From: a virus
Taxonomy: Duplodnaviria; Caudoviricetes
IMG/VR virus record: IMGVR_UViG_3300025413_001239
Length of the DNA: 64,000 nucleotides
Direction: 5' to 3' (one strand)
Shown here piece after piece: positions 8,380-62,724 of the stretch; positions within the stretch are counted from its first letter, which is position 1; every line of letters begins with the position of its first letter. A program made the translations under genes and the position numbers. The notes under the pieces are model-generated. The model made no database searches, was not told the origin of the DNA, and saw nothing but the letters and a program-made list of their open reading frames with translations.

Positions 8380-9612
8380 ATGTTAAGAGCAATTAAAATA
8401 AGACTTTACCCAAATAAAACTCAACAAAGTTATATTAATAACTTGATGGGTTGTTATCGTAAAGTATATAATCTATCTCTTAATTATAAGATAAACGAAT
8501 ATAACTTAAATGGTGAAAACGCTAATATGAAAAGTATTGGTAATCAATTTCATAATAATTGGACAAAATCAGATGATTACCAATACCTAAATAATCATAA
8601 CACAAAAGTTTTGAAACAAGCAATTATTAATATGCTTGATTCGTATAAAAGATTTTTTGTTAATGGTAATGGTTATCCTAAATTTAAATCAAAACATGAT
8701 AATAAACAATCATGCAGATTTCCATCAGAAGCAATATCTAAACGTAACGATTATTCATCATATAAACTAACACTTATATCACAATTAAAAGATATTAAAT
8801 TTAGTTGTTCTGAAGAATATTCAAAATACTTAAACAAGCATAAAGATAATATTAGGTCTGCAACATTAACCAAAAATAAATCAGGTGAGTATTATTTAAG
8901 TATCTTAATTGATGGAGATTTATTAAAATCATTAAACACACCAAGTAATCAATTTATTGGTATTGATTTAGGTATAAAGGATTTTATTATAACGTCTAAT
9001 GGGGAAAGATTTGAAAATATTAAGATAAAAAGGGGTAATGAAAAAAAGTTAGCTAGACTACATCGTAAGTTATCTAAAAAACAAAAAGGAAGCAAGAATA
9101 AAGAAAAAGCGAGAATTAAGTTAGCTAAATTTAATCATAAACTAACTAATATTAAAGAAGAATATTTACATAAGATAAGTAATCAATTATTAAACGAAAA
9201 TCAAGTTATTGTAATTGAGGACTTAAATGTGAAGGGTATGATGAAAAATCATAATTTAGCAAAATCAATACAAGAATTAAGTCTTTACAATTTTAAGAGT
9301 AAATTATTGTATAAGAGTAATTGGTATAATAGAACAATAATTGAGATAGATAGATTTTATCCTAGTTCAAAGTTATGTTCATCTTGTGGGTATAAGAATA
9401 TTGATTTAGAACTGAGTGATAGGGAATGGACTTGTCCATCATGTAAAACAAAGCATGATAGAGATTTTAATGCTTCTATTAATATTCTAAATGAGGGGGT
9501 AAGGTTATATAATAATATAATACCCATCCGTTGTGGGGAATTAACGCCTTTGGAGAGTAGTCAACAGACACTCAATGAATTAGGAAATCGGGATTTGCAT
9601 AATATTGTGTAA
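8380..9612 (+). CDS. tnpB: TnpB RNA-guided endonuclease
   Basis: N-terminal HTH (AIKIRLYPNKTQ); RuvC-I GIDLGIK, RuvC-II IEDLNVKGM, CSSCG/CPSC zinc finger, RuvC-III DRDFNASINI. Confidence 0.93.
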   Translation: MLRAIKIRLYPNKTQQSYINNLMGCYRKVYNLSLNYKINEYNLNGENANMKSIGNQFHNNWTKSDDYQYLNNHNTKVLKQAIINMLDSYKRFFVNGNGYPKFKSKHDNKQSCRFPSEAISKRNDYSSYKLTLISQLKDIKFSCSEEYSKYLNKHKDNIRSATLTKNKSGEYYLSILIDGDLLKSLNTPSNQFIGIDLGIKDFIITSNGERFENIKIKRGNEKKLARLHRKLSKKQKGSKNKEKARIKLAKFNHKLTNIKEEYLHKISNQLLNENQVIVIEDLNVKGMMKNHNLAKSIQELSLYNFKSKLLYKSNWYNRTIIEIDRFYPSSKLCSSCGYKNIDLELSDREWTCPSCKTKHDRDFNASINILNEGVRLYNNIIPIRCGELTPLESSQQTLNELGNRDLHNIV

Positions 9613-13095: not shown

Positions 13096-13129
13096 AAAAA
13101 CCCCAACAAAATAAATTGTTGGGGTTTTT
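13096..13129 (+). terminator. Intrinsic terminator
   Basis: AAAACCCCAAC...GTTGGGGTTTTT. Confidence 0.8.
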
Positions 13130-13174
13130 GTTTTTATCAGAATTTATCTGTATATTTGCAATAAAATAACTTAT

Positions 13175-14168: not shown

Positions 14169-14208
14169 TCCAATGTACAAATCAAGATAAAATTAACGAA
14201 TTTTACTT

Positions 14209-14373
14209 ATGAATCAAAGAAACGATAAAGGCTTAAGAGAAGGTTATTGGGAAGTTTATTATCCAAATGGCAAATTGGGATGGTTTGGCACATATAAAAA
14301 TGGTATTTTTATTGGGTATTATGAAGATTACAACAAAGATGGAATCATGATTAATAAAGATTTTTTCTTATGA
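14209..14373 (+). CDS. MORN-like micro-protein 1 (54 aa)
   Basis: MNQRNDKGLREGYWEVYYPNGKL...KDFFL. Confidence 0.75.
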   Translation: MNQRNDKGLREGYWEVYYPNGKLGWFGTYKNGIFIGYYEDYNKDGIMINKDFFL

Positions 14374-14588
14374 GTAATATAGTTTATAAAGAATACTTCC
14401 ATGAGAATGGTAAGATTTGGCAACGTGGTTATAAGAAAGAACATAGAAGAATAGGTCACTGGGAATGTTTTTACAATAATGGCAACTTGAAATGGTTTGC
14501 CACATTTGATAAGAATCACAATTTAGTTGGATATAGTGAAGATTACGATGAGGATGGTAAATTATGACTTAAAGAATTTTACTTATGA
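14370..14588 (+). CDS. MORN-like micro-protein 2; in-frame TGA at 14565 precedes LKEFYL
   Basis: EYFHENGK...GHWECFYNNGNL. Confidence 0.65.
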
Positions 14589-14821
14589 ATCAATATAACT
14601 TAAACAGAAAAAGACATGGTCCATGGGAACAATACTACGAGAATGGTCAACTCTGGTATAAAGGTGAATTCATTGACGGAAAAAGACATGGTCCATGGGA
14701 ACGTCACATAAATGATGGTAATTTATTGGCTAAAGGTGAATATATTAATGATAATTACATCGGATTCTGGATATGGCATAATATTACAAATCAAGATAAA
14801 ATTAATGAATTTTACTTATGA
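14585..14821 (+). CDS. MORN-like micro-protein 3
   Basis: HGPWEQYYENGQLWYKGEF...EFYL. Confidence 0.8.
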   Translation: MNQYNLNRKRHGPWEQYYENGQLWYKGEFIDGKRHGPWERHINDGNLLAKGEYINDNYIGFWIWHNITNQDKINEFYL

Positions 14822-15060
14822 ATAAACTTAATGAAAACGGTGAAAGACATGGACTTTGGGAAAAATACCATACAAATGGTAAACATCATTATAAGGGCGA
14901 ATATATAAACGGTAAAAGAAACGGACTTTGGACATTTTATTGGTGGAATAATACCCCAAGTTATACTGGCTTCTTTAAAGATAATGCATTTATTGGTTAT
15001 TTTGTATTTCATTATAATTTTGCTGGTTTATTAATAAACTCTAAGAGTTTTTATCTTTAA
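14818..15060 (+). CDS. MORN-like micro-protein 4
   Basis: HGLWEKYHTNGKHHYKGEY...FYL. Confidence 0.8.
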   Translation: MNKLNENGERHGLWEKYHTNGKHHYKGEYINGKRNGLWTFYWWNNTPSYTGFFKDNAFIGYFVFHYNFAGLLINSKSFYL

Positions 15061-15107
15061 CATTTGTTAGTTTCAATTTATTAACGTATATTTGCAAAAA
15101 AAACACA

Positions 15108-15410
15108 ATGACAAAAGTACCTAAAGCGTATATTAACGCAAATTACACATTGGCAGTAAAGCCAACTGAAGAACAACTATTGGAATATTATAAGGATTTC
15201 GGCCACGATACTATAGAAAGTATCCTAGAAGAACAAGGTTCTTGGGAAGAAGTAATCCGTCAATGGTTCGTTAACACAATCTTCAATCAAGACTATAAAG
15301 ACTATCAAACAGCCAATAATATCTTCCAATATGAAGATGATGGTGAATCAATTGAAGTTGATATAGTTGATGATGATAAATGGGTAAGTGATGAAGATTA
15401 TATTTACTAA
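15108..15410 (+). CDS. Acidic hypothetical protein with its own promoter
   Basis: Promoter at ~15064-15095; D/E-rich. Confidence 0.7.
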   Translation: MTKVPKAYINANYTLAVKPTEEQLLEYYKDFGHDTIESILEEQGSWEEVIRQWFVNTIFNQDYKDYQTANNIFQYEDDGESIEVDIVDDDKWVSDEDYIY

Positions 15411-15420
15411 AAATTAAGTC

Positions 15421-15612
15421 ATGGAAAAAATATATCATTTAAGAATACTCGATGGAAGCAGTCGAGGTTATACAATCTCTGTTACCAGTGACAGAGTGGA
15501 TAGTTATCAAGCTAATTACCATTTCTATAATATAGTTGATGGGTATAAAGTTGATGTGGCCTTTTATCCAAGTGGTCGTACAATAATTGAAAGAATTGAA
15601 GATGGAGAATAA
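15421..15612 (+). CDS. Hypothetical protein
   Basis: ORF in operon. Confidence 0.55.
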   Translation: MEKIYHLRILDGSSRGYTISVTSDRVDSYQANYHFYNIVDGYKVDVAFYPSGRTIIERIEDGE

Positions 15613-15916
15613 AGAACTTTGTGGTTCGTGTGGTGTAAAAATGGCTCAATGGTGCTACCTATCAGGTTATGGGAACGGTGAAAGCCCTTACTCTTGTGAT
15701 GATTGTGTTACATCAGTAGACTACGATGGTTGTTCATGTAACTGGCACTACTTACAATACGAACAACCAGAAGGTATAGAAGGTAAAGACTTTAGATTCA
15801 TACTTAGTGAGGGTATAACAAAAGAAGATGGAATCTGGATTCGTTTAGATGAACAAGGAAGACCCTACCCTTGTGCTGAATACTGCTTCGATGAAGAAGG
15901 CTTCGATAAAGATTAA
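15602..15916 (+). CDS. Cys-rich hypothetical protein
   Basis: CGSC, CDDC and GRPYPCAEY motifs. Confidence 0.65.
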   Translation: MENKELCGSCGVKMAQWCYLSGYGNGESPYSCDDCVTSVDYDGCSCNWHYLQYEQPEGIEGKDFRFILSEGITKEDGIWIRLDEQGRPYPCAEYCFDEEGFDKD

Positions 15917-15920
15917 AAAT

Positions 15921-16154
15921 ATGAATCAGTATAACTCCGAGGGGCAACAACATGGTTATTGGGAATATTACTCATATGTTAAACTATCATCCAAAGTTGA
16001 ATACGTTAATGGTAAAATTCATGGTTTATTTGAGCGGTATTTCAGTAATGGTCAATTACATATTAAGGGAGACGTGTTTAATGATATACGAATTGGCTTC
16101 TGGAAACAATATAACTGTAATGGTGGGTTAGAAGTAACTGAATTTATACTATGA
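15921..16154 (+). CDS. MORN-like micro-protein 5
   Basis: MNQYNSEGQQHGYWEY...TEFIL. Confidence 0.8.
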   Translation: MNQYNSEGQQHGYWEYYSYVKLSSKVEYVNGKIHGLFERYFSNGQLHIKGDVFNDIRIGFWKQYNCNGGLEVTEFIL

Positions 16155-16459
16155 ATCAACTTAATAAAAACGGCGTTAAGCATGGGCCTTGGATTGAATA
16201 CTGGGTTAACGGTGTAATGGATTATTCATGCGAATTTATAAATGGTCGTAAGCATGGTTTATATATCGGTAATCATCCTAATGGTAATCTACAATCTAAA
16301 ATTATGTATGATATGGGCCACAGAGATGGAAAACAAGAAACATTTTACGAAAATGGTAAACTAGGACATTCTGGAAATTTTAAACGTGGTAAACGATTCG
16401 GTTATCATATCATAAATAATGAAGATGGTAGTTTATTCATTAATTATTTTTACTTATGA
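16151..16459 (+). CDS. MORN-like micro-protein 6
   Basis: HGPWIEY...FYENGKL...YFYL. Confidence 0.8.
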   Translation: MNQLNKNGVKHGPWIEYWVNGVMDYSCEFINGRKHGLYIGNHPNGNLQSKIMYDMGHRDGKQETFYENGKLGHSGNFKRGKRFGYHIINNEDGSLFINYFYL

Positions 16460-16692
16460 ATAAAAGAAATGAAAATTGTGAACCTCATGGACCTTGGGAA
16501 AAATACTACGAGGACAATATATTGAAAGCTAAAGGCTTATATGTAAATGGTAAAGCTCATGGTCAATGGGAATTTTATTGGGGTAATGGTAACTTTCAAT
16601 GGCAAGGCACTTATAAAATGAGTGAATTAGTAGGCTTCTGGATAGGGTATACTTATGAAGGTGATTTGGCTTCAAAAGAATTTTTTTTATGA
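16456..16692 (+). CDS. MORN-like micro-protein 7
   Basis: HGPWEKYY...HGQWEFYWGNGN...KEFFL. Confidence 0.8.
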   Translation: MNKRNENCEPHGPWEKYYEDNILKAKGLYVNGKAHGQWEFYWGNGNFQWQGTYKMSELVGFWIGYTYEGDLASKEFFL

Positions 16693-16771
16693 ATCAAATT
16701 TGCTTATATCAAATACCTTTCGTATATTTGCTGCCTATACTCTAGTATAGGCATTTTTAATTTAACATATT

Positions 16772-17062
16772 ATGAAAATAACAAAATTACTATTTGAAAA
16801 AAATTATAATGGTGAATACACTTGGTTGCCATTAGCAGATATACCAAAGGAGTTCTTGGTGCCTGAAAACATGATAATGGTTCATATTGAACATGGCTAC
16901 CATGATAGTAATGGTTGGAATGAAGGTCATACAAGAATTCAAATCGCTGAGGAAAGAGAGATGAATGAAAAGGAAAGAGAAGAACTGAGAACGTTTATCG
17001 CACAAAAAAAAGCTGAACGTAAAAAAGAAAGGTACGAACAGTATTTAGAACTTAAAAAATAA
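16772..17062 (+). CDS. Hypothetical protein with its own promoter
   Basis: Promoter at 16698-16729. Confidence 0.65.
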   Translation: MKITKLLFEKNYNGEYTWLPLADIPKEFLVPENMIMVHIEHGYHDSNGWNEGHTRIQIAEEREMNEKEREELRTFIAQKKAERKKERYEQYLELKK

Positions 17063-17067
17063 ATAAA

Positions 17068-17469
17068 ATGGAAAAAGAATTTATCCCTTACGAAGAAGCA
17101 TTAGCATTAAAAGAATTAGGTTTTGATGAACCTTGTTTTGGGTTTTTTAAAACTAATAAAGAATTTGAACAATACCATACCTTTTATAAAGGTAAATTCT
17201 TTGGATGTACAAATAAAATATTATCTAGAATGTTAGATGGTGAAAACGTCAATTCTAAAGTTTTATCACCAACATTCTCACAAGCATTCAGATGGTTTAG
17301 AGATAACCATAATTTACATGGTCAAGTAAATATTCGTACTTGGTTTATATATGAAACGTCTAATGGTAATTTAACCATGGTAGATTTATATGATAAGCTC
17401 AATAACTCTCACGAAGAATCCGAACTGGTATGTCTTAAAGGATTAATTCAAATAGTAAAAAATAAATAA
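17068..17469 (+). CDS. Conserved phage hypothetical protein
   Basis: MEKEFIPYEEALALKELGFDEPC...PTFSQAFRWFR pattern. Confidence 0.7.
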   Translation: MEKEFIPYEEALALKELGFDEPCFGFFKTNKEFEQYHTFYKGKFFGCTNKILSRMLDGENVNSKVLSPTFSQAFRWFRDNHNLHGQVNIRTWFIYETSNGNLTMVDLYDKLNNSHEESELVCLKGLIQIVKNK

Positions 17470-17534
17470 TGTTTGGAATAATAAACTAACTGGTAGCGAT
17501 AAAACATGGTGGAAAATAGTTAAACAGGCAAAAG

Positions 17535-17690
17535 ATGAATAAGATACTTAATGGCTTAAGAGAATGACCTTGGGAAATGTATAACCACATTGGTGGATTA
17601 TCCTACAAAGGAACTTATCTACAAAGTCAAAAGATTGGTTATTGGTATTTTGATTGGTTTGGTAAACGCAAAACAGAGTTTTACTTATGA
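17535..17690 (+). pseudogene. MORN-like micro-protein 8 with a nonsense codon (TGA at 17565 where paralogs have Gly)
   Basis: MNKILNGLRE*PWEMY...GYW...TEFYL. Confidence 0.65.
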
Positions 17691-17857
17691 ATAAGGTAAT
17701 TAAAGGTTTAAAAGAAGGGCTTTGGGAACAATATTTTTCTGATGGTAGCTTATATTACAGGGGAAGTTATTTGCACGACAAAATGGTTGGTTACTGGGTC
17801 GTTAATTATTTAGTCCGTTTTAAGCATCGTAAACAAGAAACTGAATTTTACTTATGA
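17687..17857 (+). CDS. MORN-like micro-protein 9 (56 aa)
   Basis: GLKEGLWEQYFSDGSLYYRG...TEFYL. Confidence 0.75.
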   Translation: MNKVIKGLKEGLWEQYFSDGSLYYRGSYLHDKMVGYWVVNYLVRFKHRKQETEFYL

Positions 17858-18087
17858 ATCAATTTAACGCTAGAGGTAGCAAACATGGTCATTGGAAAAG
17901 TAATATTGGCGATACGTATATCCATGATGGTTCTTATCTTAATGGCAAAAAACATGGCCCTTGGAAATCAACCTTCGCATTTTCCGATAAGTTAAGCTGG
18001 ACTGGTTTCTATAAAATGGATATGCAAGTCGGATTCTGGAAAAAGTATCAAAAAGGTAAATTATATAAAACTCTATTTTATATATGA
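17854..18087 (+). CDS. MORN-like micro-protein 10
   Basis: HGHW...NGKKHGPW...LFYI. Confidence 0.8.
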   Translation: MNQFNARGSKHGHWKSNIGDTYIHDGSYLNGKKHGPWKSTFAFSDKLSWTGFYKMDMQVGFWKKYQKGKLYKTLFYI

Positions 18088-18404
18088 ATCAATTTAACGA
18101 GAAAGGGGAAAAGCACGGCTATTGGGAACGAAAAATTGGTGGAGTATTCACCCATAAGGGTTCCTATGTTAATGGTAAACAACATGGCTTATGGTTATCA
18201 GCATCTTGGGAAGAATATCATACTAATGGTAAATTACATTATAGAGGACAATACAAAAATGGAAAATACATTGGTAGATGGATATACTATTTTTCTAACG
18301 GCAAGTTAGCTTTTCTGGGTCATTACTTAAATGGTAATTACATAGGCTTCTGGATAGTTAATGATGATGATGGTCAATTAAAATATAAAGCATTTTATCT
18401 ATGA
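18084..18404 (+). CDS. MORN-like micro-protein 11 (apparently chimeric)
   Basis: Shares a DNA block with protein 12 and a module with protein 4. Confidence 0.8.
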   Translation: MNQFNEKGEKHGYWERKIGGVFTHKGSYVNGKQHGLWLSASWEEYHTNGKLHYRGQYKNGKYIGRWIYYFSNGKLAFLGHYLNGNYIGFWIVNDDDGQLKYKAFYL

Positions 18405-18637
18405 ATCAAAGAAACGATAAAGGCTTAAGAGAAGGTTATTGGGAAGATAAACATGGTGATATGGTAATTTATAAGGGTTCCTATGTTAATGGTCAAAAAC
18501 ATGGCTTATGGTTATCAGCATCTCCAACTTCTAATCGGTTAAATTGGGCAGGTTATTTTGATATGGATACCAACGTGGGGTTCTGGTGTTGGTATCTTAA
18601 AGGTGAATTAAAAACAACACTAGAATTCTTTTTATGA
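18401..18637 (+). CDS. MORN-like micro-protein 12
   Basis: First 46 nt identical to protein 1. Confidence 0.8.
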   Translation: MNQRNDKGLREGYWEDKHGDMVIYKGSYVNGQKHGLWLSASPTSNRLNWAGYFDMDTNVGFWCWYLKGELKTTLEFFL

Positions 18638-19268
18638 TTAAGCAAAAACTACATGAATTTGATAATAATTGGTATAGAGGACAATGTATAAATAATATAC
18701 CTGTTGGATTTTGGTTATTTAAGACTAATACAATTTTTGGTAAACATAATAAGATTTTTTACTTATGATATATTATGATAAAATGGACAGAATTAGTGAA
18801 TTATCTAATTATCTTCTCTACGGTTTCAATTTTACTGGCCGTTACATTAACGGATTTAAAATCGGATTTAAAATCGGATTTTGGGCCATAATTGATTATT
18901 CAACCGAATTAACGCATAAAGAATTTTACTTATGAAAATACATCATCATGAAACAACATGGTCTAAAGGCACACTTATTGATGGTGCGCAAATTGGTTAT
19001 TGGGAATACTATCACCACGTTAATCGTGGCAATTTAAAATCAATTAATAAAGTATTTCTTTTATGAAAGAACACTACAAATCAAATTGGGCAAAGGGTAC
19101 ATTTATTAATGGTGATTTTCATGGCTATTGGGAATTTTATCAGTATGGTAATTCTAAAATACTAAGCAATAAAATCACAATTAAAACATTCTTCATATGA
19201 AAGAATACGTAAATCAAACTTGGTATAATAGAGGTGGTAACTTAAAACGAGCTGAATTTTATTTATGA
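18634..19268 (+). CDS. Five coupled minimal MORN-like ORFs 13-17 (18634-18768, 18765-18935, 18932-19066, 19063-19200, 19197-19268; 23-56 aa)
   Basis: Four have G...G(F/Y)W; all end F(Y/L/F)(L/I) with ATGA overlaps; below the ORF-track cut-off. Confidence 0.65.
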
Positions 19269-19489
19269 ACGACAAAAATACAACCGAATTAATTGAAAGG
19301 TATTATCAAAACGGACAACTTAGTATCAGAGTTACATTAGTAAACGGCAAAAGGACTGGTGCTTGTGAATCATATTTCCAAAATGGTAAATTGGAATTTA
19401 AAGGACCATGCCTAAATAACGAACCCATCGGATTCTGGCTGGATTATCATTATAGCGGTAAATTAAATACAACAGAATTTTACTTATGA
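19265..19489 (+). CDS. MORN-like micro-protein 18
   Basis: YYQNGQL...YFQNGKL...TEFYL. Confidence 0.8.
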   Translation: MNDKNTTELIERYYQNGQLSIRVTLVNGKRTGACESYFQNGKLEFKGPCLNNEPIGFWLDYHYSGKLNTTEFYL

Positions 19490-19701
19490 ACGAATATATA
19501 CTTGAAATAAATTATTATAATAACGGAAAAATACGTTTTAAGTCATCTTATACGGATAATCGAAATAAGACTACAACCGAATGGTATTTCGAAAACGGTC
19601 AGTTAGACTTGATGTGTCATTACTTAAATTATCAACAAATAGGATTCGCTAAATCCTATTATCAATATGGTGGTTTACATACAACAGAATTTTACTTATG
19701 A
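19486..19701 (+). CDS. MORN-like micro-protein 19
   Basis: YYNNGKI...YFENGQL...TEFYL. Confidence 0.8.
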   Translation: MNEYILEINYYNNGKIRFKSSYTDNRNKTTTEWYFENGQLDLMCHYLNYQQIGFAKSYYQYGGLHTTEFYL

Positions 19702-20066
19702 ATCAATATAACGCAAACGGTGAAAGACATGGCCCTTGGGAATTTTATCACAATAAAAAAATTGAATGCAAAGGCCAATACGTAAACGGACAAAAAGAAG
19801 GTCAATGGATATGGTATTACCCTAACGGAACAATAGCATTCAATTACGTAAACGGATTAATGCATGGCACGTTTGAAAGTCATGATGATAAGTCAATACT
19901 TGTTTGTAAAGGCCAATACGTAAACGGACAAAAAGAAGGTGAATGGTGGGAAACTAACATAACGAAAGCATACACATGGTTAAGAACTTATTCAAAAGAC
20001 CATATCAGATTTGAAAAAAAATATGAATACATGGGTCATTTAATACATAAAGCATTCTTCTTATGA
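19698..20066 (+). CDS. MORN-like micro-protein 20
   Basis: Internal duplication CKGQYVNGQKEG. Confidence 0.8.
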   Translation: MNQYNANGERHGPWEFYHNKKIECKGQYVNGQKEGQWIWYYPNGTIAFNYVNGLMHGTFESHDDKSILVCKGQYVNGQKEGEWWETNITKAYTWLRTYSKDHIRFEKKYEYMGHLIHKAFFL

Positions 20067-20368
20067 ATAAGAAAATTAATAGCTTAAAAGAAGAACCTTG
20101 GGAAACCTATTATACTAATGGTAAACTAGCCTCTAAGGGTGAATACATTAACGGCAAACATCACGGACCATACGAATCATTTTATATGAATGGTAACTTG
20201 TATTGGCAAGGCTATTTTAAAGACGGTATTTACCATGGCTTATTTAAAGTATTTTATAATAACGGACAAGTATTCTCTAAAGGTCAACACTTTAATGGTG
20301 GTAAATGTGGCATATGGGAATACTATCACGAAGATGGTCTAATAGATTATAAAGAATTTCACTTATGA
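20063..20368 (+). CDS. MORN-like micro-protein 21
   Basis: YYTNGKL...FYMNGNL...FYNNGQV...KEFHL. Confidence 0.8.
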   Translation: MNKKINSLKEEPWETYYTNGKLASKGEYINGKHHGPYESFYMNGNLYWQGYFKDGIYHGLFKVFYNNGQVFSKGQHFNGGKCGIWEYYHEDGLIDYKEFHL

Positions 20369-20383
20369 TGTTTAACGAACTTA

Positions 20384-20523
20384 TGTGCCGTAGGCCAGAT
20401 GTCCAACGGACGAGTGTGCCGTAGGCCAGATGTCCAACGGACTTGTGTGCCATCGCCATGAAGGCTCTGGACGAGTGTGCCGTAGGCCAGATGTCCAACG
20501 GACGAGTGTACACAAAAGTGTTC
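20384..20523 (+). repeat. Tandem 30-31 bp GC-rich hairpin units ending in a GTACAC-N4-GTGTWC palindrome
   Basis: GTGTGCCGTAGGCCAGATGTCCAACGGACGA x3 plus one variant unit. Confidence 0.9.
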
Positions 20524-20881
20524 ATGAAATTAGAAGTTATGGATAAATATAACAACATAAGACTCTTATTGTAAAAATTACTTAAAATTCCTTAAATTTA
20601 ATTCTATGTGTTCTTAAGTGTACCTAAAACAACCCGTTTACATTATTTGAGTTTTTTTTTGAATTTTTGGTAAAATGTGGTAAAAAGTGGGTAAATGTGG
20701 TAAAATCCAGACGTAAAAAACGGAAAATGGGGTTTTTAAGGCATTTTAAAGAGTTTTTTAAAATATAGCATTTTAGCCATTTTTGAAAAATCATTTTATA
20801 CCACCCACTAAAAATATTTTTTTTCGATATATTACAGGAAATTTTTATACGTCTATATACAGGGCATAAAACCGCTTTTAT

Positions 20882-20970
20882 ATACACAAAAGTGTACATG
20901 AAGTCCAGAGCCTTCATGGCGATGGTACACTCGTCCGTATGTCCTCGTGACTACGGTACATAAAGTCCAC
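20882..20970 (-). repeat. Inverted partner of the 20384 repeat block
   Basis: Reverse complement contains GTGTACCATCGCCATGAAGGCTCTGGAC and the palindrome. Confidence 0.85.
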
Positions 20971-21353: not shown

Positions 21354-21549
21354 ATATAAGTTATTTGATGAGCGGCAAAAGTATATGTATGTAAGTCACC
21401 GTAAAAGATGAATTTGGTTATGTGGTAATCTACTAGTATATTTGCAGTAGTTAAGTGGTTAATTGTTAAGGGTTTACATATAAATAAAATAAAAAAAGTT
21501 TTTGCCATATCAAAAAATACCCTTATCTTTGCATTCTAAATTAACAATT

Positions 21550-54665: not shown

Positions 54666-55937
54666 TTATTTTTTTGATTTTGTTTTATCAGATTTGATAG
54701 CGATTTCATTCTTATCACTATCAAAGGATATTTTAATTATTTCACCTTCCTTAACGTTACCGCTTAGTATTTCATCGGCAACTTGGTCTTCAACATAGCG
54801 TTGAATAGTTCTTGCTAGTGGTCTAGCACCGTAGTTTTCATCGTAGCCTTCTTTAGCTAAGAACTCAACAGCTTCTTTTTCAATCTCAAGTTTATAACCA
54901 ACTTCTTCAAGTCTTTTTTGAACTTCAGCAACTTCATTATAAATGATTTTGTTGATATCCTCTGGCTTAAGACTATTAAACACGATTGATTCGTCAATAC
55001 GGTTTAAGAATTCTGGTTTAAATTTCTTCTTTAGAGCTTTTTCAATGATGCTACGATTTCTAGCATCTTCACCAGCGATGGTTGTTGCGGTTTCGAATCC
55101 GATTGTTTTTCCAAAGGTATTTAATTCCTTAACACCAACATTAGATGTTAATATAATTAAAGCGTTTTTGAAATTAACTTTACGGCCAAGACCATCTGTT
55201 AATTGTCCTTCATCAAATAGTTGAAGCATAATGTTAAATACGTCATCATGCGCTTTTTCGATTTCATCGAATAGAATTACACAGTGTGGTTTACGTCTAA
55301 CTTTTTCAGTTAGTTGACCACCTTGGTCGTAACCAACATAACCTGGTGGTGGACCAATTAATCGTGATACTGAGTGTTTCTCCATGTATTCACTCATATC
55401 AACCTTTATAAGTGCTTCAACGTCACCATAAACGTGCTCAGCGAGTAGTTTAGCTAAATACGTGTTATGGCTTAAGATACCATTAGTGTAATATCTTCGA
55501 TTAGAACCTTCTTTTAATTCAAGGTCATACATAACCTCCTCATAACCTAAATTAATAACCTCAATAACTTTCGATTCAATTAATTTACCATCATTATCTG
55601 ATACCATTACAAATGACCCAATTTTTAAGTCTTTAACAAATACTTCAGTTAACCCAATTGGTTCAAATGTGGTTTCATTATATTCAGTAACAAATATAAT
55701 ATGATTATCAGCACATTTTAGTTCTTTACCATCAGATAATTTAAGTTGATATACTTCGTAAGGTATTGTTTCATGTAATGCTTCTATATCAACAAATCCA
55801 TCGTCAGTTAAGACTTCGTACTCGCTAATTTTGGTTGTTTTGGTAATCTTTTTTAAAGATTCTAATTCATGTTTATCAAATAATAAAATATTATCTGACC
55901 CATCAACTCTTTTTTTAATTTCTTCTATTCTACCCAT
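54666..55937 (-). CDS. clpC: C-terminal half of split ClpC/ClpB: C-intein (158 aa) plus AAA2 domain
   Basis: LKCADNH, MYDL...NGILSHN|TYLAK; DMSEYMEKHSVSRLIGPPPGYVGY; FKPEFLNRID; YGARPL. Confidence 0.9.
   Translation of the reverse strand: MGRIEEIKKRVDGSDNILLFDKHELESLKKITKTTKISEYEVLTDDGFVDIEALHETIPYEVYQLKLSDGKELKCADNHIIFVTEYNETTFEPIGLTEVFVKDLKIGSFVMVSDNDGKLIESKVIEVINLGYEEVMYDLELKEGSNRRYYTNGILSHNTYLAKLLAEHVYGDVEALIKVDMSEYMEKHSVSRLIGPPPGYVGYDQGGQLTEKVRRKPHCVILFDEIEKAHDDVFNIMLQLFDEGQLTDGLGRKVNFKNALIILTSNVGVKELNTFGKTIGFETATTIAGEDARNRSIIEKALKKKFKPEFLNRIDESIVFNSLKPEDINKIIYNEVAEVQKRLEEVGYKLEIEKEAVEFLAKEGYDENYGARPLARTIQRYVEDQVADEILSGNVKEGEIIKISFDSDKNEIAIKSDKTKSKK
55464..55937 (-). other. C-fragment of split intein
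   Basis: Block B-like ADNH, block F YDL, block G SHN followed by Thr. Confidence 0.88.
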
Positions 55938-56069
55938 TTTATTTTATTTTTAAATTAAGATTCGTAAATTGGCATATATCTTTTCTAAAAGTCGTTTTAT
56001 GTAATGCTAAAGAATAACTTTTAATTACATAAATTAAATCATTTATATTATATATACTTTTTCCATTTT

Positions 56070-56432
56070 TTATAAATTTATTCTATTGATTAATTGAATA
56101 TATGAGTTAATACTTAATTTTTTAGATAGATATTTTTTTATTATTTCTGGATTATTGTATTTTTTTGGATTATCCAAAAACTCAAAAAGAATTTCTAGAA
56201 ATAAATCTTTTTCAATATCACTTTCACTACAACAACTCATAAAATCACCAAATGATGGGATAAAAGTATTAATATCAGTCATTATTATTATTTATATGTT
56301 TTAGTATTTCTTTAATAACATCTACCCATTGATTGGTTTGAGTTATATGTTTAATTTTGTTTTCTGAAAAAGAAGATACTTGTCTAAGACCTTCTTTATC
56401 TGTAATAATAATCTCCATTTTATTTTCCATAT
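56070..56432 (-). CDS. Two small ORFs inserted between the intein halves
   Basis: Preceded by a TATATTTG promoter at ~56445-56452. Confidence 0.5.
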
Positions 56433-56452
56433 TATTTTTTTTTACAAATATA

Positions 56453-57673
56453 CTACTTTTTATTAAGGAAAGCAATACATTTATTTATTATTTCTTGTTT
56501 ATTTCCCCATCGATATTCTGAATCCCAAATTACTAACACTTTATAACCTTCTTCAAGTGCAACATCTAATTTTCGTTTATCTTTATCCCACATTTCTTGT
56601 GCTGTAATGGTTTTTCTAAACGGATGTGGATAATCATCAGCTTTATATTTATTTGGATTTCCATGAAACATATCACCATGAAATTCAATTATCCGTTTAT
56701 TTTTAATATCGGTAAAATCATATAACCAAACACCACCTTCTTTTTTAGTTAATTTAAACTCACTATTATGTGTTGCGAAATGAACTTTATCCCTATCACT
56801 AATATCATATGTTTCTAAAATTTTATAGAACAAATCTTGAGATATTTTAGAATATCCAATAACTATATTACCATTGGTTAATAACGATTTTAACCATTTA
56901 TTTTGTCTTTCAGTAAAACGTTTTTTACCTTCTTCTTCACCATACTTTGCAATGCATTTTTCAAGACTAAAAGTTGACTGATGTTCTGATACATTTTGTT
57001 TTGCATCTTCTTTTGAATAACCTTTATTAACCCAATATTCTATATTGGATGGTATTAATCTAGTTTCAAAATCAACTTGTTTCGCAGCTTCAGTTTGGTT
57101 TTTACTAATTATATCTTTCGCCTCGTTTTCAGAATATCCTTTATTAACCCAGAAATCAGAATTTGTTGGTGTTAAACAAATACGTTTTATATCTTCATCA
57201 GAGTAACCTTTTTCTTTTAACATTTTTTTAGATTTACCATGATAAGTTTTAACACATTTAGATGATTTTTGTTGTTGTTTAGAAATTTCATTAATAGCTT
57301 CTTCTTTAGTGTAACCTTTATTAACCCAATATTCCTCACATAAACGATTCCTTTGTTTTAATTCTTCATTACGTTTATCCAATTCAACCAAAGCGTCTTT
57401 ATCATTCCAACCACGTTCAATCCAATATCCTAATTCTCCCCATTTTTTAGTTTTAAAACCATAATTTTTAACCAACCAACCACGCATTAACGATAACGAA
57501 ACAACACCTTCTTGTTCTTGTAATTTAATCATTAATGATTCCATTTTTTTTTTAATCGTTTCATTATCGTAGTGTATGTTTTTATCTAATTTTAAAACAT
57601 GGTCTTTAAACGTTTCTAAATCTGGAAACACTTCATTCACTTCTTTAATTCCTTTACTTGTTTTTATCTTCAT
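56453..57673 (-). CDS. Free-standing Vsr/PD-(D/E)XK-type homing endonuclease with YW...GY repeats
   Basis: YWVNKGYS repeats; YDF...IIEFHGD.FH...GYKVLVIWDSEY. Confidence 0.8.
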   Translation of the reverse strand: MKIKTSKGIKEVNEVFPDLETFKDHVLKLDKNIHYDNETIKKKMESLMIKLQEQEGVVSLSLMRGWLVKNYGFKTKKWGELGYWIERGWNDKDALVELDKRNEELKQRNRLCEEYWVNKGYTKEEAINEISKQQQKSSKCVKTYHGKSKKMLKEKGYSDEDIKRICLTPTNSDFWVNKGYSENEAKDIISKNQTEAAKQVDFETRLIPSNIEYWVNKGYSKEDAKQNVSEHQSTFSLEKCIAKYGEEEGKKRFTERQNKWLKSLLTNGNIVIGYSKISQDLFYKILETYDISDRDKVHFATHNSEFKLTKKEGGVWLYDFTDIKNKRIIEFHGDMFHGNPNKYKADDYPHPFRKTITAQEMWDKDKRKLDVALEEGYKVLVIWDSEYRWGNKQEIINKCIAFLNKK

Positions 57674-57719
57674 GACATCTATTTTATAATAAATATCATG
57701 AAGTTTTAAAAAGTTCGGA

Positions 57720-59531
57720 CTAATTGGTGTCGGGTACGATATTTTTTATATTAATAATTTTAATCTCACCAGTTAGTTTATTTCTAACTGTTATTTCTGT
57801 ATCACCACAAATACACTTACCAACACCTGTTGGACCTAAAAAGATGAATGTACCAACTGGTTTATTTTTAGGCTTAATACCAATACGATTTCTCTTGATG
57901 GCTTTAACAACTTTAGCAACAGCTTCGTCTTGACCTATGACTTTACCAGTTAACTCCTTATCAAGGGTAAGTAATTTTTTACTTTCTTGGGTTGAGATTT
58001 TAGTTAATGGGATACCAGTCATCATCGATACAACTTCGGATATTTGTTCAACACCAACAATTGTTTCTCTTTTTTCAAGCTTAGTAGTCCAAGCTTTCAT
58101 AGCGGCTTCTAGTTGCTCATTGATTTTGTTTTGTTCATCCCTAATTTTTGCAGCGTCTTCGTATTTTTGTTTGCTAACAACTTCTTTTTTCCTGATGATA
58201 AGTTTGTTTTTCTTATCTTCAAGGTCCTTAATATTCTGTGGTTTTTCAAGACTAATATTAGTTGCAGCACCAGCTTCATCCATAACATCTATGGCCTTAT
58301 CTGGCATTGACCTTTCCATGATGTATCTATCAGAAAGCTTCACACATTCTTCAATAGCTTCGTCAGTATAAACAACGTTATGGTGTTTTTCATACTTTTC
58401 TTTAATATTTTGAAGAATAACCTTAGTTTCTTCGAGGGTTGGTTCCTCAACAAGAACTTGTTGAAATCTTCTTGTTAAAGCACCATCTTTTTCGATGTGC
58501 TCACGATATTCATCAAGGGTTGTTGCGCCGATGATTTGTATTTCACCACGAGCCAATGCTGGTTTAAAGATGTTACTAGCATCTAAGGCACCAGATGCGT
58601 TACCAGCACCAACGATTGTATGTAATTCATCGATGAATAAAATGATATCTGTGTTTGCTTTACATTCTTCAAGAACGGCTTTCATTCTTTCTTCAAATTG
58701 ACCACGATACTTGGTGCCAGCAACAAGAGAAGCTAATTCAAGTGAATAAATCTTTTTATTAGCTATAATTCTAGGTGCGTTACCTTCTTTAATAAGAAGT
58801 GCAAGCCCTTCAACGATTGAGGATTTACCAACACCTGGTTCACCGATGATAACTGGGTTGTTTTTCTTTCTACGAGAAAGAATTTGTGAAATCCTCTTGA
58901 TTTCGTTAGTACGCCCAACTACTGGGTCGATTTCATTTTTTTCTACTGCTTTGCTGATATCTCTACAGAAATTATCCAACACTGGTGTTTTACCACCATC
59001 AGATTTTCTTTTAGATTTTCTAAAACGTTCTGAATCGTTTGTAAAATCATCTTGTACATCTTCATCGTCCATCGGACCGTTTTTAAAGTTTTCTTTACTT
59101 TGCATTATCATTTTTTTAAATGTTACATAATTGACACCGAATTCATTTAATATATCAGAAATCGGTGTTTTAAAGGCTAAAATAGACAATAATAAGTGTC
59201 TTGTGTCGATTACTTTATCATTAAGTTTCTCACATTCACTATCTATTATTTTAAATACATGTTTAGCATCTTCAGAGAAGATTATATTATTACTAAATTT
59301 GACTAGTACTCTTGGTGTTAAATCGCTTCTTAGGTAATCATAAACAGCGATTTGTAATGCACTAATATCAATTTTATTCTTTGTTAGAATTTCTACACAC
59401 TCATTATCGTTATCGTTTAATAGTGATATAACTAAGTGTTCTGGTTTAACTTTATTATCATCAAAGCTTTTAGCTTCTTCATTAGCTTTATTAATAATAA
59501 ATTTAACCTTAGGATATATTTCTCTATTCAT
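57720..59531 (-). CDS. clpC: N-terminal half of split ClpC/ClpB: N-domain, AAA1, M-domain, Walker A2 and a 31-aa N-intein
   Basis: [44 protein letters not shown]; GPTGVGK|CICGDT...*. Confidence 0.92.
57723..57815 (-). other. N-fragment of split intein (31 aa)
   Basis: [10 protein letters not shown] block A directly after the Walker A Lys. Confidence 0.85.
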
Positions 59532-60300: not shown

Positions 60301-62724
60301 ATGAAAAATGGGTTAGATGAACAATATATCGAATTATTAGAGGATATATTAAAAAATGGTATTGAAAAAGAAACCAGAAATGGTAAGGTATTATCTGTTT
60401 TTGGACGTGAAATTAGATATAAATTTAAAGATGGTAAATTTCCACTTATAACTACCAAAAAAATGTACTTTAAGGGTATTGTAACTGAATTACTATGGTT
60501 CTTACAAGGACGTACTGATTTACGTTATTTACTTGAGAACGATTGTAATATTTGGACGGGAGACGCTTATAAGAGATATATTTTTAATTCAGAATGGTAT
60601 CCAATTGCTGGTTCACCTAGTGGATTTATTGGCACTAAATCTGATAGTGATGAAATAATGACACAAGGAATATTCATTGAACGTATTAAAACAGACGATG
60701 AGTTTTCAAGGACATGGGGTGATTTAGGACCTGTGTATGGGTCTGGTTGGCGTAATTGGAAGTTCACAGATAAGTTTACAAATGGAGAACAGATTACTTA
60801 TGTAAATGGAAAGGTAGACCAGATTGCAAACTTAATCGAAGACCTTAAAACAAATCCAGATTCTCGCAGACTTATGGTAAATGCGTGGAATTGTTCAGAG
60901 CTCGACCAAATGGTTTTACCACCATGCTTTACTGAAGATATGATGGTTGCATGTGTGGATGGTTATAGGAAAATATCTGAAATAACCACTAACGATTTGG
61001 TGTTAACTGAAGATTGTTCTTATCAAAAAGTTTATGAACTACATGAAACAATGTATAATGGCGATTTAATTAAATTTAAAGTATTTGGCAATACTAAATA
61101 TATAACATGCACCCCTAATCATCCGTTTTTAATTAAAGATAAAGGTTATATTAGTGCTAATGAAATAATTGAAGATGATTACTTAGCGATACCTATAAAT
61201 AGAAATTCAATTATACCGTCATTTGATACGTTGTTAAAATGCAACCAATATGGTGAAAAATTAGTAACCACAAAATTAGATAATTTTGATTATTGGTTTT
61301 TAATGGGGTATTTTATGGGAGATGGTTGGTTAATAAGTTCAAAAGAAGAGGTTTGTTTTGTAATAAATGACAACCAAACGGATTTAATACTACCTAGATT
61401 AAAAAATATAATAGGTTTAGCTAAATTAAATAATTCTGGTATTAATTGCACAAAATATGTCGGTAAGAAAAAACAAGTTTTTGAAATTTTATCTATGTTT
61501 GGAAAATATGCTGATGGCAAATTTATACCAAAATTTGTTTATGATGCGCCTAAGGAGTACATTGAACAATTTATTGAAGGTTATTTTATGGCCGATGGGT
61601 GTAAAACAAAAGACGGTATAAGTTATAGTACAGTATCTGAAAATATTGCGTATGGGGTACAATTACTATATGCAAAGTTAGGTGTTAAAGTTAGTGTATA
61701 TTTTCAAAATAGACCTAAAAAAAAGGTTATTGAGGGGCGTGAGGTAAACCAAAAAAATACATTTTCAATAAATGTATACAAACAAAAAAATAAAACAAAA
61801 AAATATATTTTAGACACCGACTATTTGTGGGTTAAAATTAAAGAAATTAATAAAATTAATTTTAATGGTTATGTTTATAATATATCGGTTGGTAACAATC
61901 ACACGTATAACGTGTACAATCTAATCAACCATAATTGTCATTATGGATTTCAATGTTATACTAGAGAATTGGGTTTGGAAGAAAGAAGAGAGATTGCTAG
62001 AAATAAATTAAATTCTATAGAATGGGGTGATGTTATTAAATTAGCTCATTACAATGAGACTTATGATAAGTATAATATACCAACCAGAGCATTATCATTG
62101 AAATGGAATCAACGTTCAGTTGATACACCATTAGGTTTGCCATTTAATATAGCATCTTATGGTCTATTGTTAGAGATACTTGCAAAAGAAGTTAACATGG
62201 TACCAGATGAATTGATTGGTGGTCTTGGTGATTGTCATATTTACTTAAACCAAATTGAAGGTGTTAAAGAACAGATTGGAAGAGAATATACAGTTGAAGA
62301 GGGTTTACCTAAAACGATTAAATTAATAGGTTACGGTAAAGAATTGGAATTTTCATTGACAGATAAAAGAGAAATAGAATATTATGGTAAAACCGAAGGT
62401 AGCAATGAAACTTTGTGGAGAACTGAAAAATTTAAAGATAATGAAGTATTCTACCAGACAGAATTTGGATGGGGTGTTTTTCTAAATACTGACACTTTTG
62501 AAACTGTCACATACGATGGAACTGAATGGGGTGGTCAAAAAATAAACATCTCTAAGAGAACTCGTGAACCGTTTCCGTTACCAAGACTTAAGCACATGAA
62601 AACTGATGCTTTCTATAAGTCATTATCTGAAGACCAATCGTTGTATGGACATTTAGATAATAAAGATTTTCAAATTGAGAATTATCAATCACATCCGTCA
62701 ATTAAATTTCCGTTAAGTAACTAA
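60301..62724 (+). CDS. thyA: Thymidylate synthase with cis-intein
   Basis: FPLITTKK, ELLWFLQG, LGPVYG, PDSRR, LPP|C, QRSVD...PFNIASY, GDCHIY. Confidence 0.95.
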   Translation: MKNGLDEQYIELLEDILKNGIEKETRNGKVLSVFGREIRYKFKDGKFPLITTKKMYFKGIVTELLWFLQGRTDLRYLLENDCNIWTGDAYKRYIFNSEWYPIAGSPSGFIGTKSDSDEIMTQGIFIERIKTDDEFSRTWGDLGPVYGSGWRNWKFTDKFTNGEQITYVNGKVDQIANLIEDLKTNPDSRRLMVNAWNCSELDQMVLPPCFTEDMMVACVDGYRKISEITTNDLVLTEDCSYQKVYELHETMYNGDLIKFKVFGNTKYITCTPNHPFLIKDKGYISANEIIEDDYLAIPINRNSIIPSFDTLLKCNQYGEKLVTTKLDNFDYWFLMGYFMGDGWLISSKEEVCFVINDNQTDLILPRLKNIIGLAKLNNSGINCTKYVGKKKQVFEILSMFGKYADGKFIPKFVYDAPKEYIEQFIEGYFMADGCKTKDGISYSTVSENIAYGVQLLYAKLGVKVSVYFQNRPKKKVIEGREVNQKNTFSINVYKQKNKTKKYILDTDYLWVKIKEINKINFNGYVYNISVGNNHTYNVYNLINHNCHYGFQCYTRELGLEERREIARNKLNSIEWGDVIKLAHYNETYDKYNIPTRALSLKWNQRSVDTPLGLPFNIASYGLLLEILAKEVNMVPDELIGGLGDCHIYLNQIEGVKEQIGREYTVEEGLPKTIKLIGYGKELEFSLTDKREIEYYGKTEGSNETLWRTEKFKDNEVFYQTEFGWGVFLNTDTFETVTYDGTEWGGQKINISKRTREPFPLPRLKHMKTDAFYKSLSEDQSLYGHLDNKDFQIENYQSHPSIKFPLSN
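60925..61935 (+). mobile_element. LAGLIDADG intein (337 aa) in thyA
   Basis: CFTED...TPNHPF...GYFMGDG / GYFMADG...VYNISV...NHN|C. Confidence 0.92.

Follow-up and report, generated by a model that had tools for sequence, protein, structure and literature searches.

A chained family of small MORN_2-like genes in a large tailed phage

The stretch of DNA studied here (the window) comprises 64,000 nucleotides (nt) of the IMG/VR virus record IMGVR_UViG_3300025413_001239 (Duplodnaviria; Caudoviricetes), and contains, on the plus strand between positions 14209 and 20368, an array of 21 small open reading frames (ORFs) in three runs of four, three and fourteen. A first-pass annotation made from the sequence alone had listed 21 such ORFs, in three runs, with overlapping stop and start codons, and this description holds: all lie at the coordinates first listed, and the overlap is the four-base ATGA at every junction within the runs (18/18). 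Three entries (members 2, 5 and 8) needed correction, either of their starts or for a premature TGA. The window is part of a record of 148.7 kilobases (kb), which CheckV rates as 44% complete, and the same proteins occur on a contig of 343 kb. Given these sizes, and with its genes for a large terminase subunit, a portal protein and a major head protein, the record comes from a tailed phage of about 340 kb, in whose promoter-dense, small-gene half the array sits. We call this phage G000 where it is compared with others. The runs, their members (lengths in amino acids, aa) and two remnants beside them are as follows.

14176-14208, plus strand: ghost 3' end of a lost member, codons TNQDKINEFYL without a start; 32/33 nt identical to the end of member 3 (14785-14817)
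14209-15060, plus strand: run 1, members 1-4
14209-14373, plus strand: member 1, 54 aa; N-terminus and upstream junction 92.6% identical over 68 nt to those of member 12
14370-14588, plus strand: member 2, 65 aa to a premature TGA at 14565-14567
14585-14821, plus strand: member 3, 78 aa, three repeats; used for the structure model
14818-15060, plus strand: member 4, 80 aa; closes run 1 with TAA, without ATGA
15921-16692, plus strand: run 2, members 5-7
15921-16154, plus strand: member 5, 77 aa; true start MNQYN at the ATG at 15921, not the start of the 101-aa ORF
16151-16459, plus strand: member 6, 102 aa, four repeats
16456-16692, plus strand: member 7, 78 aa; closes run 2
16689-16697, plus strand: ghost 5' start of a lost member, ATGAATCAA (MNQ), continuing directly into the next promoter
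17535-20368, plus strand: run 3, members 8-21
17535-17690, plus strand: member 8, 51 codons; in-frame TGA at codon 11 (17565-17567)
17687-17857, plus strand: member 9, 56 aa
17854-18087, plus strand: member 10, 77 aa, very basic (charge +8.8)
18084-18404, plus strand: member 11, 106 aa
18401-18637, plus strand: member 12, 78 aa
18634-18768, plus strand: member 13, 44 aa, one repeat plus C-terminal cap
18765-18935, plus strand: member 14, 56 aa, divergent
18932-19066, plus strand: member 15, 44 aa, MKxH subtype
19063-19200, plus strand: member 16, 45 aa; modelled as a four-stranded sheet
19197-19268, plus strand: member 17, 23 aa, reduced to N- and C-terminal caps
19265-19489, plus strand: member 18, 74 aa
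19486-19701, plus strand: member 19, 71 aa
19698-20066, plus strand: member 20, 122 aa; internal duplication, 19757-19808 and 19895-19946 being 88% identical
20063-20368, plus strand: member 21, 101 aa, four repeats; closes run 3

The array consists of real protein-coding genes, because three kinds of evidence agree. First, its 6.2 kb hold 19 coupled ATGA sites, where 200 shuffles gave 0.13 on average and never more than 2; the entire 148.7 kb record has only 55 on both strands, and four-base overlaps, universal within the array, occur in 4 of about 18 non-array neighbour pairs of the small-gene region. The overlap is missing only at the end of run 1, where member 4 stops with TAA and no member follows on its 3' side. 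Second, in nucleotide-guided alignments of eight members the mismatch rate is 0.39 at the first codon position, 0.35 at the second and 0.45 at the third. Third, paralogs within G000 differ at a median of 0.42 of non-synonymous sites (pN) versus 0.68 of synonymous sites (pS; Nei-Gojobori), with pN below pS throughout; the closest pairs in three phages have ratios of non-synonymous to synonymous substitution rates (dN/dS) of 0.2-0.5, and for the seven shortest members, paired one by one with their best relatives, the pooled pN is 0.38 versus a pS of 0.62 (Fisher p = 2e-8). These values support selection on the protein sequence, whose absence the first-pass annotation had named as fatal to its proposal, and they do so for the short members as well.

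The members share a simple plan, in which an N-terminal cap (MNQxNxxG) is followed by a variable number of repeats of about 24 residues and by a C-terminal cap (GxLxxKEFYL). Fourteen start with MN, member 8 being the fifteenth if read from its true ATG, and 20/21 end in F-(Y/F/I/L/H)-(L/I). They differ chiefly in the number of 24-residue repeats and in non-structural residues, and the N- and C-termini are their most conserved regions. In related phages sizes step cleanly through 54, 78, 102, 126 and 151 aa; in G000 only about eight members fall on the 54/78/102 series, and five have 23-45 aa.

Profile and structure searches support the assignment of these products to MORN_2/YwqK-like beta-hairpin proteins, as the first-pass annotation had supposed when it recognised MORN/YwqK-like modules. 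The Pfam MORN_2 model (PF07661), a hidden Markov model (HMM) of a 22-residue repeat with a gathering score of 29.6 bits, matches 9/10 members tested: five lie above the gathering score at 33-44 bits, four reach 19-28 bits and one has no match. A search of the phage's own genome returned 12 matches. Against the 23-residue eukaryotic MORN model (PF02493) the best member scores 18.7 bits, under the 22.5-bit threshold, so that, judged by sequence, the kinship to eukaryotic MORN is at the level of clan and fold only. A profile of the family searched against the PDB matches the MORN repeats of SET7/9 (E = 1e-7), MORN1 and RSPH1. The AlphaFold2 model of member 3 (78 aa, 32 homologues) has six beta strands and a mean predicted local distance difference test score (pLDDT) of 94.7; its best fold match in Swiss-Prot is YwqK of Bacillus subtilis (P96723; template modelling score, TM, 0.77; root-mean-square deviation 2.4 A over 76 residues), Foldseek matches in the PDB are SET7/9 and MORN1, and in BFVD the model first matches 'MORN variant' proteins from uncultured tailed phages (47% identity, TM 0.93) and then many MORN proteins of giant viruses. 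Small proteins with this annotation, from such phages, also make up the nearest clusters in the ESM Atlas and BFVD. The 45-aa member 16 is modelled as a four-stranded sheet, with a pLDDT of 82.7 in the best model and about 70 in the other four. Hydrophilic and aromatic-rich, the members have isoelectric points of 5.6-9.9, and none has a signal peptide or membrane segment. Searches for a more specific assignment gave just weak sub-threshold matches to the Leptospira MORN_2 adhesin model in NCBIfam and no PADLOC match for any member, and among 1.8 billion representatives the top 150 profile matches were long multi-repeat MORN_2 proteins, with nothing function-specific.

The conserved termini raise the question of whether the members are pieces of a larger protein, made in equal amounts as subunits that would stack, C-terminal EFYL strand against N-terminal NQYN strand, or dimerise into longer mixed MORN sheets. 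Translational coupling is typical of the subunits of complexes, eukaryotic MORN1 proteins dimerise (titles of PDB 6t4r, 6t69 and 6t6q), the 78-aa unit aligns almost end to end with internal modules of long MORN_2 proteins of about 1,090 aa, and the model of member 3 predicts exposed edge strands at both ends. However, conserved caps are expected in stand-alone repeat proteins too, and a fixed stoichiometric assembly is hard to square with run lengths and member sizes that vary freely from phage to phage. We find the idea of a split repeat protein unlikely.

Part of the array shows signs of decay. Member 2 carries a premature TGA six codons upstream of an intact LKEFYL and ATGA end, and in member 8 the ATG at 17577, downstream of its in-frame TGA, would yield a 37-aa remainder, which is the ORF originally listed. 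Recoding of the two in-frame TGAs as Gly or Trp was considered and rejected, because every junction uses TGA as its stop, and with TGA read as sense long-ORF coverage hardly rises (from 0.857 to 0.877 at 100 aa, and from 92 to 95 ORFs at 200 aa); TAG read as sense likewise adds next to nothing, the standard code applies, and both are nonsense mutations. One may then ask whether the array is mostly debris, an old expansion in decay whose frames stay open only so that a few functional downstream members get translated. The two premature stops, the five members of 23-45 aa with at most one repeat, the departure of G000 sizes from the clean 54/78/102 series, and tree branches that are much longer for members of G000 than for those of the related phages G001 or L020 would all fit. 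Against this, pN is below pS even in the short members, the 45-aa member still models as a small sheet, and the family is kept in many distant phages; we consider such a state of general decay rather unlikely.

The fixed, conserved junction claimed by the first-pass annotation proved to be constrained in its nucleotides as well, and our comparisons support a conservation beyond what the protein would need. The genome-preferred Tyr codon is TAT, and at the penultimate Tyr of the junction TAC is used in 12/13 cases in G001 versus 13% elsewhere in the same genes (p = 3e-9), in 8/9 versus 15% in L038 (p = 9e-6) and in 8/13 versus 26% in G000 (p = 0.01). Junctions with TAT continue with CTA or ATA, and the sequence T-TTA-TGA is nearly absent from the junctions of G000, G001, L038 and L041, with the exception of L034 and L049, where it stands at all eight (8/8). 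The pattern of Tyr codon and T-TTA-TGA was seen across the array and the loci L008/L009, L038, L041, L058, L034 and L049. Such a constraint may reflect the efficiency of reinitiation, the avoidance of -1 slippage, or homogenisation of junctions by gene conversion.

Slippage deserves a closer look, since a ribosome that slipped by -1 at the stop would enter the frame of the next gene at its ATG and make a longer MORN protein. The next gene is always in the -1 frame with its ATG directly adjoining, and the avoidance of T-TTA-TGA in G000, G001, L038 and L041 together with its presence at every junction of L034 and L049 suggests that slippage matters either way. Yet the -1 relation is automatic for any ATGA overlap, the junction of this phage is the non-slippery C-TTA-TGA, with no stimulatory structure and no heptamer, and each unit has its own conserved N-terminal Met-Asn cap, all of which makes fusion very improbable. 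A broader version would have the repeat protein made in pieces, with equimolar units joining through their terminal strands into combinatorial MORN sheets, or fusing by -1 slippage where T-TTA-TGA is kept; the avoidance of T-TTA-TGA in this phage would then be selection on the frequency of joining. This too is distinctly improbable in our judgement.

Transcription of the array can be approached through the motif TTTG-N17-22-TAnnTTTG, a consensus established for Bacteroidota. The window has 39 copies (33 on the plus strand) versus 3.7 in shuffles, an excess of about tenfold. The copies and head genes that concern the array are these.

13127-13158, plus strand: promoter motif of operon 1, TTTG-N20-TATATTTG, directly after a terminator-like hairpin (13096-13129)
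15063-15094, plus strand: promoter motif of operon 2
15108-15916, plus strand: three non-MORN small genes at the head of operon 2, 100, 63 and 104 aa, without family match
16699-16730, plus strand: promoter motif of operon 3, followed by a terminator-like hairpin with a T-run (16732-16753)
16772-17469, plus strand: two non-MORN genes at the head of operon 3, 96 and 133 aa

Because a motif precedes each operon and none lies inside the runs (the next copy on the 3' side is at 21413), each MORN run forms the tail of an operon headed by a Bacteroidota-type promoter motif, with two or three unrelated small genes before the run. In G001 the same type of motif stands directly before two of the runs. 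Across the record, 35/37 plus-strand copies fall in the first 60 kb; the interval with the major head gene (80-110 kb) has none, and the one that holds the terminase gene and the beginning of the portal gene (70-80 kb) has only two, one per strand. A scan for sigma-70 promoters did no better than shuffles (61 vs 52.7) and was set aside, and no Rfam family was found in the window.

Stop/start overlap together with the lack of an internal promoter motif is what would be expected of coupled operons. Three further observations fit termination-reinitiation, without proving it: ATGA is lost only where no member follows, the junction is constrained beyond the need of the protein, and the nonsense stops of members 2 and 8 lie close to a usable ATG from which reinitiation could still occur, the next ATG being 18 nt on in member 2 and an in-frame ATG 9 nt on in member 8.

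Relatives, found by scanning for the junction pattern and by HMM searches with the family profile, place the array in a broader context. The distant phage fragment G001 (77.7 kb) has four or five runs, with 23 ORFs at E <= 1e-3 and 26 matches in six-frame translation, L020 has 15 chained members, L019 has eight members with 11-nt overlaps, and nine metagenome contigs carry the chained family, L038 with 13 members in 3 kb. Copy number thus differs by lineage, from 21 in the array plus 2 elsewhere in G000 and at least 23 in G001 to 15 in L020 and 13 in L038, and the array is a viral tandem multigene family with copy number varying between lineages. The ATGA-chained form itself recurs in at least 11 other phage or metagenome contigs. 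The two members of G000 elsewhere are solitary and outside the window: one at G000:C1:4175-4576 (plus strand, 133 aa) and one at G000:C1:125851-126087 (minus strand, 78 aa), the latter on the opposite strand and 100 kb off. Among INPHARED cultured phages, tblastn found nothing for member 3 and one weak match for a member of G001.

The family is old. G000 and G001 share only about 27 ORFs, at 27-55% identity, and in a tree that rests on a short alignment, with many forks unresolved, their members intermix and form some supported cross-phage groups, which implies that some subtypes predate the split of these two phages; members of L020 and L019 mostly cluster by phage. Paralogs share 30-50% protein identity, with synonymous sites near saturation. 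The youngest, members 10-12, still show synonymous distances (dS) of 0.5-0.7 and dN/dS of 0.6-0.8 for the pairs 10-12 and 11-12, and no recent whole-gene duplicate was seen among the array members.

This bears directly on the proposal of the first-pass annotation that the array is an actively expanding, recombining library in which the conserved junction provides the homology for recombination, so that new combinations of binders would arise on ecological time scales. Traces that such a process could leave do exist: the ghost 3' end before member 1, the ghost 5' start after member 7, the 68-nt tract that spans the junctions before members 1 and 12, the internal duplication of member 20, and the differences between members by whole repeats. 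Moreover, short-read contigs break at the repeated junction (three end at 14223-14225), which fits the report that long reads from a marine virome recover 37 times more MORN-repeat proteins than assemblies (PMC9238414). Nevertheless, in addition to the age of the paralogs, seven contigs of other samples match the array with 100% identity, and a 99.5% strain variant (two contigs) keeps the gene order with a single non-synonymous single-nucleotide polymorphism (SNP) in 884 array bases (E9Q of member 20, at 19722), against 11 SNPs and a 61-nt repeat deletion in 1,708 flanking bases (1.7 kb downstream). In a collection of 15 billion proteins, 5/6 members that were found there are singletons in 90%-identity clusters. 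As for a dedicated diversification system, the record (44% of the genome) has no match to the reverse transcriptase model RVT_1 in 148.7 kb, the similarity among paralogues is direct only, and strains do not vary, none of which resembles a diversity-generating retroelement or a shufflon, although no search for an invertase was made.

An actively shuffling library is therefore quite unlikely, and the ghosts, the 68-nt tract and the duplication in member 20 are, as far as the sequences tell, traces of past recombination only. Of the recombination that the first-pass annotation proposed, these old traces stand; the ongoing shuffling does not. It had also named invariance among relatives as an argument against itself, and here the outcome is divided, the array being invariant across near-identical strains, where nine assemblies differ by one SNP, and different in copy number and members between distant phages. 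Its statement that the window lacks reverse transcriptase and recombinase is right for the former throughout the 148.7 kb, but the window does contain a TnpB/IS605 OrfB transposon gene. The best reading of the sequences is that the array is an old birth-and-death gene family rather than an actively shuffling library.

We propose that this is an early, coupled family of small soluble MORN_2 proteins, which work as binders of other proteins, a proposal to which we give roughly even credence. Host RNA polymerase would transcribe three polycistronic operons early in infection from host-type promoters, and ribosomes would be handed from gene to gene at ATGA by termination-reinitiation, yielding similar amounts of each mini-protein. 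By analogy with YwqK, which binds its toxin, the mini-proteins could form a panel of small binders, each holding a host or a phage protein. The family would evolve by slow birth and death, through unequal crossing-over at junctions or within repeats and now and then gene conversion, while some copies decay, with no part for programmed shuffling.

Several points weigh against this proposal. Anti-defence, toxin neutralisation and receptor masking, the roles suggested by the first-pass annotation, would be conjecture, and searches of the members and the neighbouring genes with Pfam, PHROGs and PADLOC brought up no toxin, defence or anti-defence family. The assignment of the host to Bacteroidota and of the genes to the early phase is inferred from the promoter motif only. 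The conserved termini would fit structural caps, but fit end-to-end assembly equally. The pN and pS values given above rest on near-saturated synonymous sites, and the alignments behind them are partly protein-guided, which lowers pN somewhat. Last, several members may have no function, namely those of 23-45 aa and the two that carry stops, in which case to speak of 21 binders overstates the working set.

How does the array compare with systems already described? YwqK is the immunity protein of the LXG deaminase toxin YwqJ in B. subtilis (PMC8321402, bioRxiv 10.64898/2026.09.29.755374). It shares with the array members the Pfam family MORN_2 and is their top Swiss-Prot fold match, and both are small, soluble, cytoplasmic and plausibly binding proteins; however, YwqK has 154 aa and is encoded beside its toxin gene, while the array members have 23-122 aa, are chained in a row of 21, are borne by a phage and share only 21% identity with it. 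A cognate toxin gene, with an LXG or other toxin domain, was not found in the neighbouring or interleaved genes (Pfam, PHROGs, PADLOC), so that of the two marks of the YwqK immunity class, fold and adjacent toxin, the array would have, by sequence and model, the fold and not the toxin. Bacterial poly-immunity loci are also tandem arrays of small immunity-type binder genes, some of YwqK type, chromosomal or mobile, and tied to secretion-system toxins. They differ in this link to toxins, none being seen at the array.

Giant eukaryotic viruses (Marseillevirus, Orpheovirus, Pithovirus, Pandoravirus) have multigene families of MORN and other repeat proteins (PMC5753266, PMC6418002). As in the array, these are lineage-specific tandem MORN expansions in large genomes, with presumed protein-protein contacts, and the folds match (BFVD); but the viruses are eukaryotic and the genes mostly longer and separately expressed, whereas the array units have 2-4 repeats and are ATGA-chained in phage operons. 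Eukaryotic MORN proteins (PF02493; the N-domain of SET7/9, MORN1, RSPH1, junctophilin) have the same beta-hairpin repeat fold, but are long scaffolds or domains of larger proteins, and array members are sub-threshold to PF02493. The nearest relatives by structure and sequence are the phage 'MORN variant' proteins (UniProt A0A6J5M5J6, 84 aa; ESM Atlas clusters of 70-113 aa, 100% viral), which are of the same size class and differ in being automatic annotations only. In the papers searched we found no description of phage MORN arrays, their junctions or their function. What is new here is the chained, size-quantised mini-gene form with a constrained junction; viral MORN multigene families as such were already known.

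Other features of the window and record were noted along the way. The 133-aa gene between runs 2 and 3 (17068-17469) is of a family for which IMG/VR has 111 relatives on contigs of large phages, and a homologue sits between the MORN runs of G001; two DNA matches of about 80 nt, to the huge-phage records LR756500 and LR756502, were the only ones of an INPHARED DNA search. Its use as a marker of the array was rejected, as 79 loci (1.24 Mb) around homologues held no MORN family member. For the 806-aa neighbour gene no relative was found in IMG/VR. Right after the array, at 20377-20963, lies an element of about 590 bp with G+C-rich ends that form 58-nt imperfect inverted repeats (81% complementary), an A+T-rich interior and, on the left, a 32-nt direct repeat in three copies. 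It resembles a miniature transposable element, and strain variant L226 lacks 61 nt of it (20408-20468), part of the repeat block being gone.

The TnpB/IS605 OrfB gene mentioned above (8380-9612, 410 aa; Pfam HTH_OrfB_IS605, OrfB_IS605, Cas12f1-like_TNB) is in the small-gene region; among cellular proteins its nearest relatives share 40-51% identity and come from Prevotella, Mycoplasmatota and Clostridia alike, a spread that is uninformative as to the host. Three further genes seem to be interrupted. A Lon-like ATP-dependent protease (phrog_4871) is encoded on the minus strand (54666-59531) in two ORFs, 57720-59531 corresponding to profile positions 5-510 and 54666-55937 to 510-761, with a 406-aa ORF between the halves (56453-57673) that is possibly an inserted mobile gene. 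The 807-aa thymidylate synthase at 60301-62724 has its ThyA halves (residues 3-210 and 592-665) split by an insert of about 380 residues, which matches families from other interrupted phage genes and is probably an intein or similar insertion. The portal gene, outside the window (G000:C1:78894-83231; L062:3895-8232), encodes 1,445 aa with an HNH-endonuclease-like segment at residues ~773-859 that suggests an intein or inserted homing endonuclease.

Large phages spend kilobases on series of very small genes for repeat proteins, which gene callers and short-read assembly often overlook or fragment. The array described here is a well-bounded example, with a high-confidence fold, defined operons, quantised sizes, a nucleotide-constrained junction and relatives in a dozen contigs. 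If the members bind host factors, they would be a source of small natural binding scaffolds (54-102 aa) and would point to new phage-host targets in Bacteroidota; if instead they assemble together, they would represent an unusual route to a repeat protein from separately encoded pieces.

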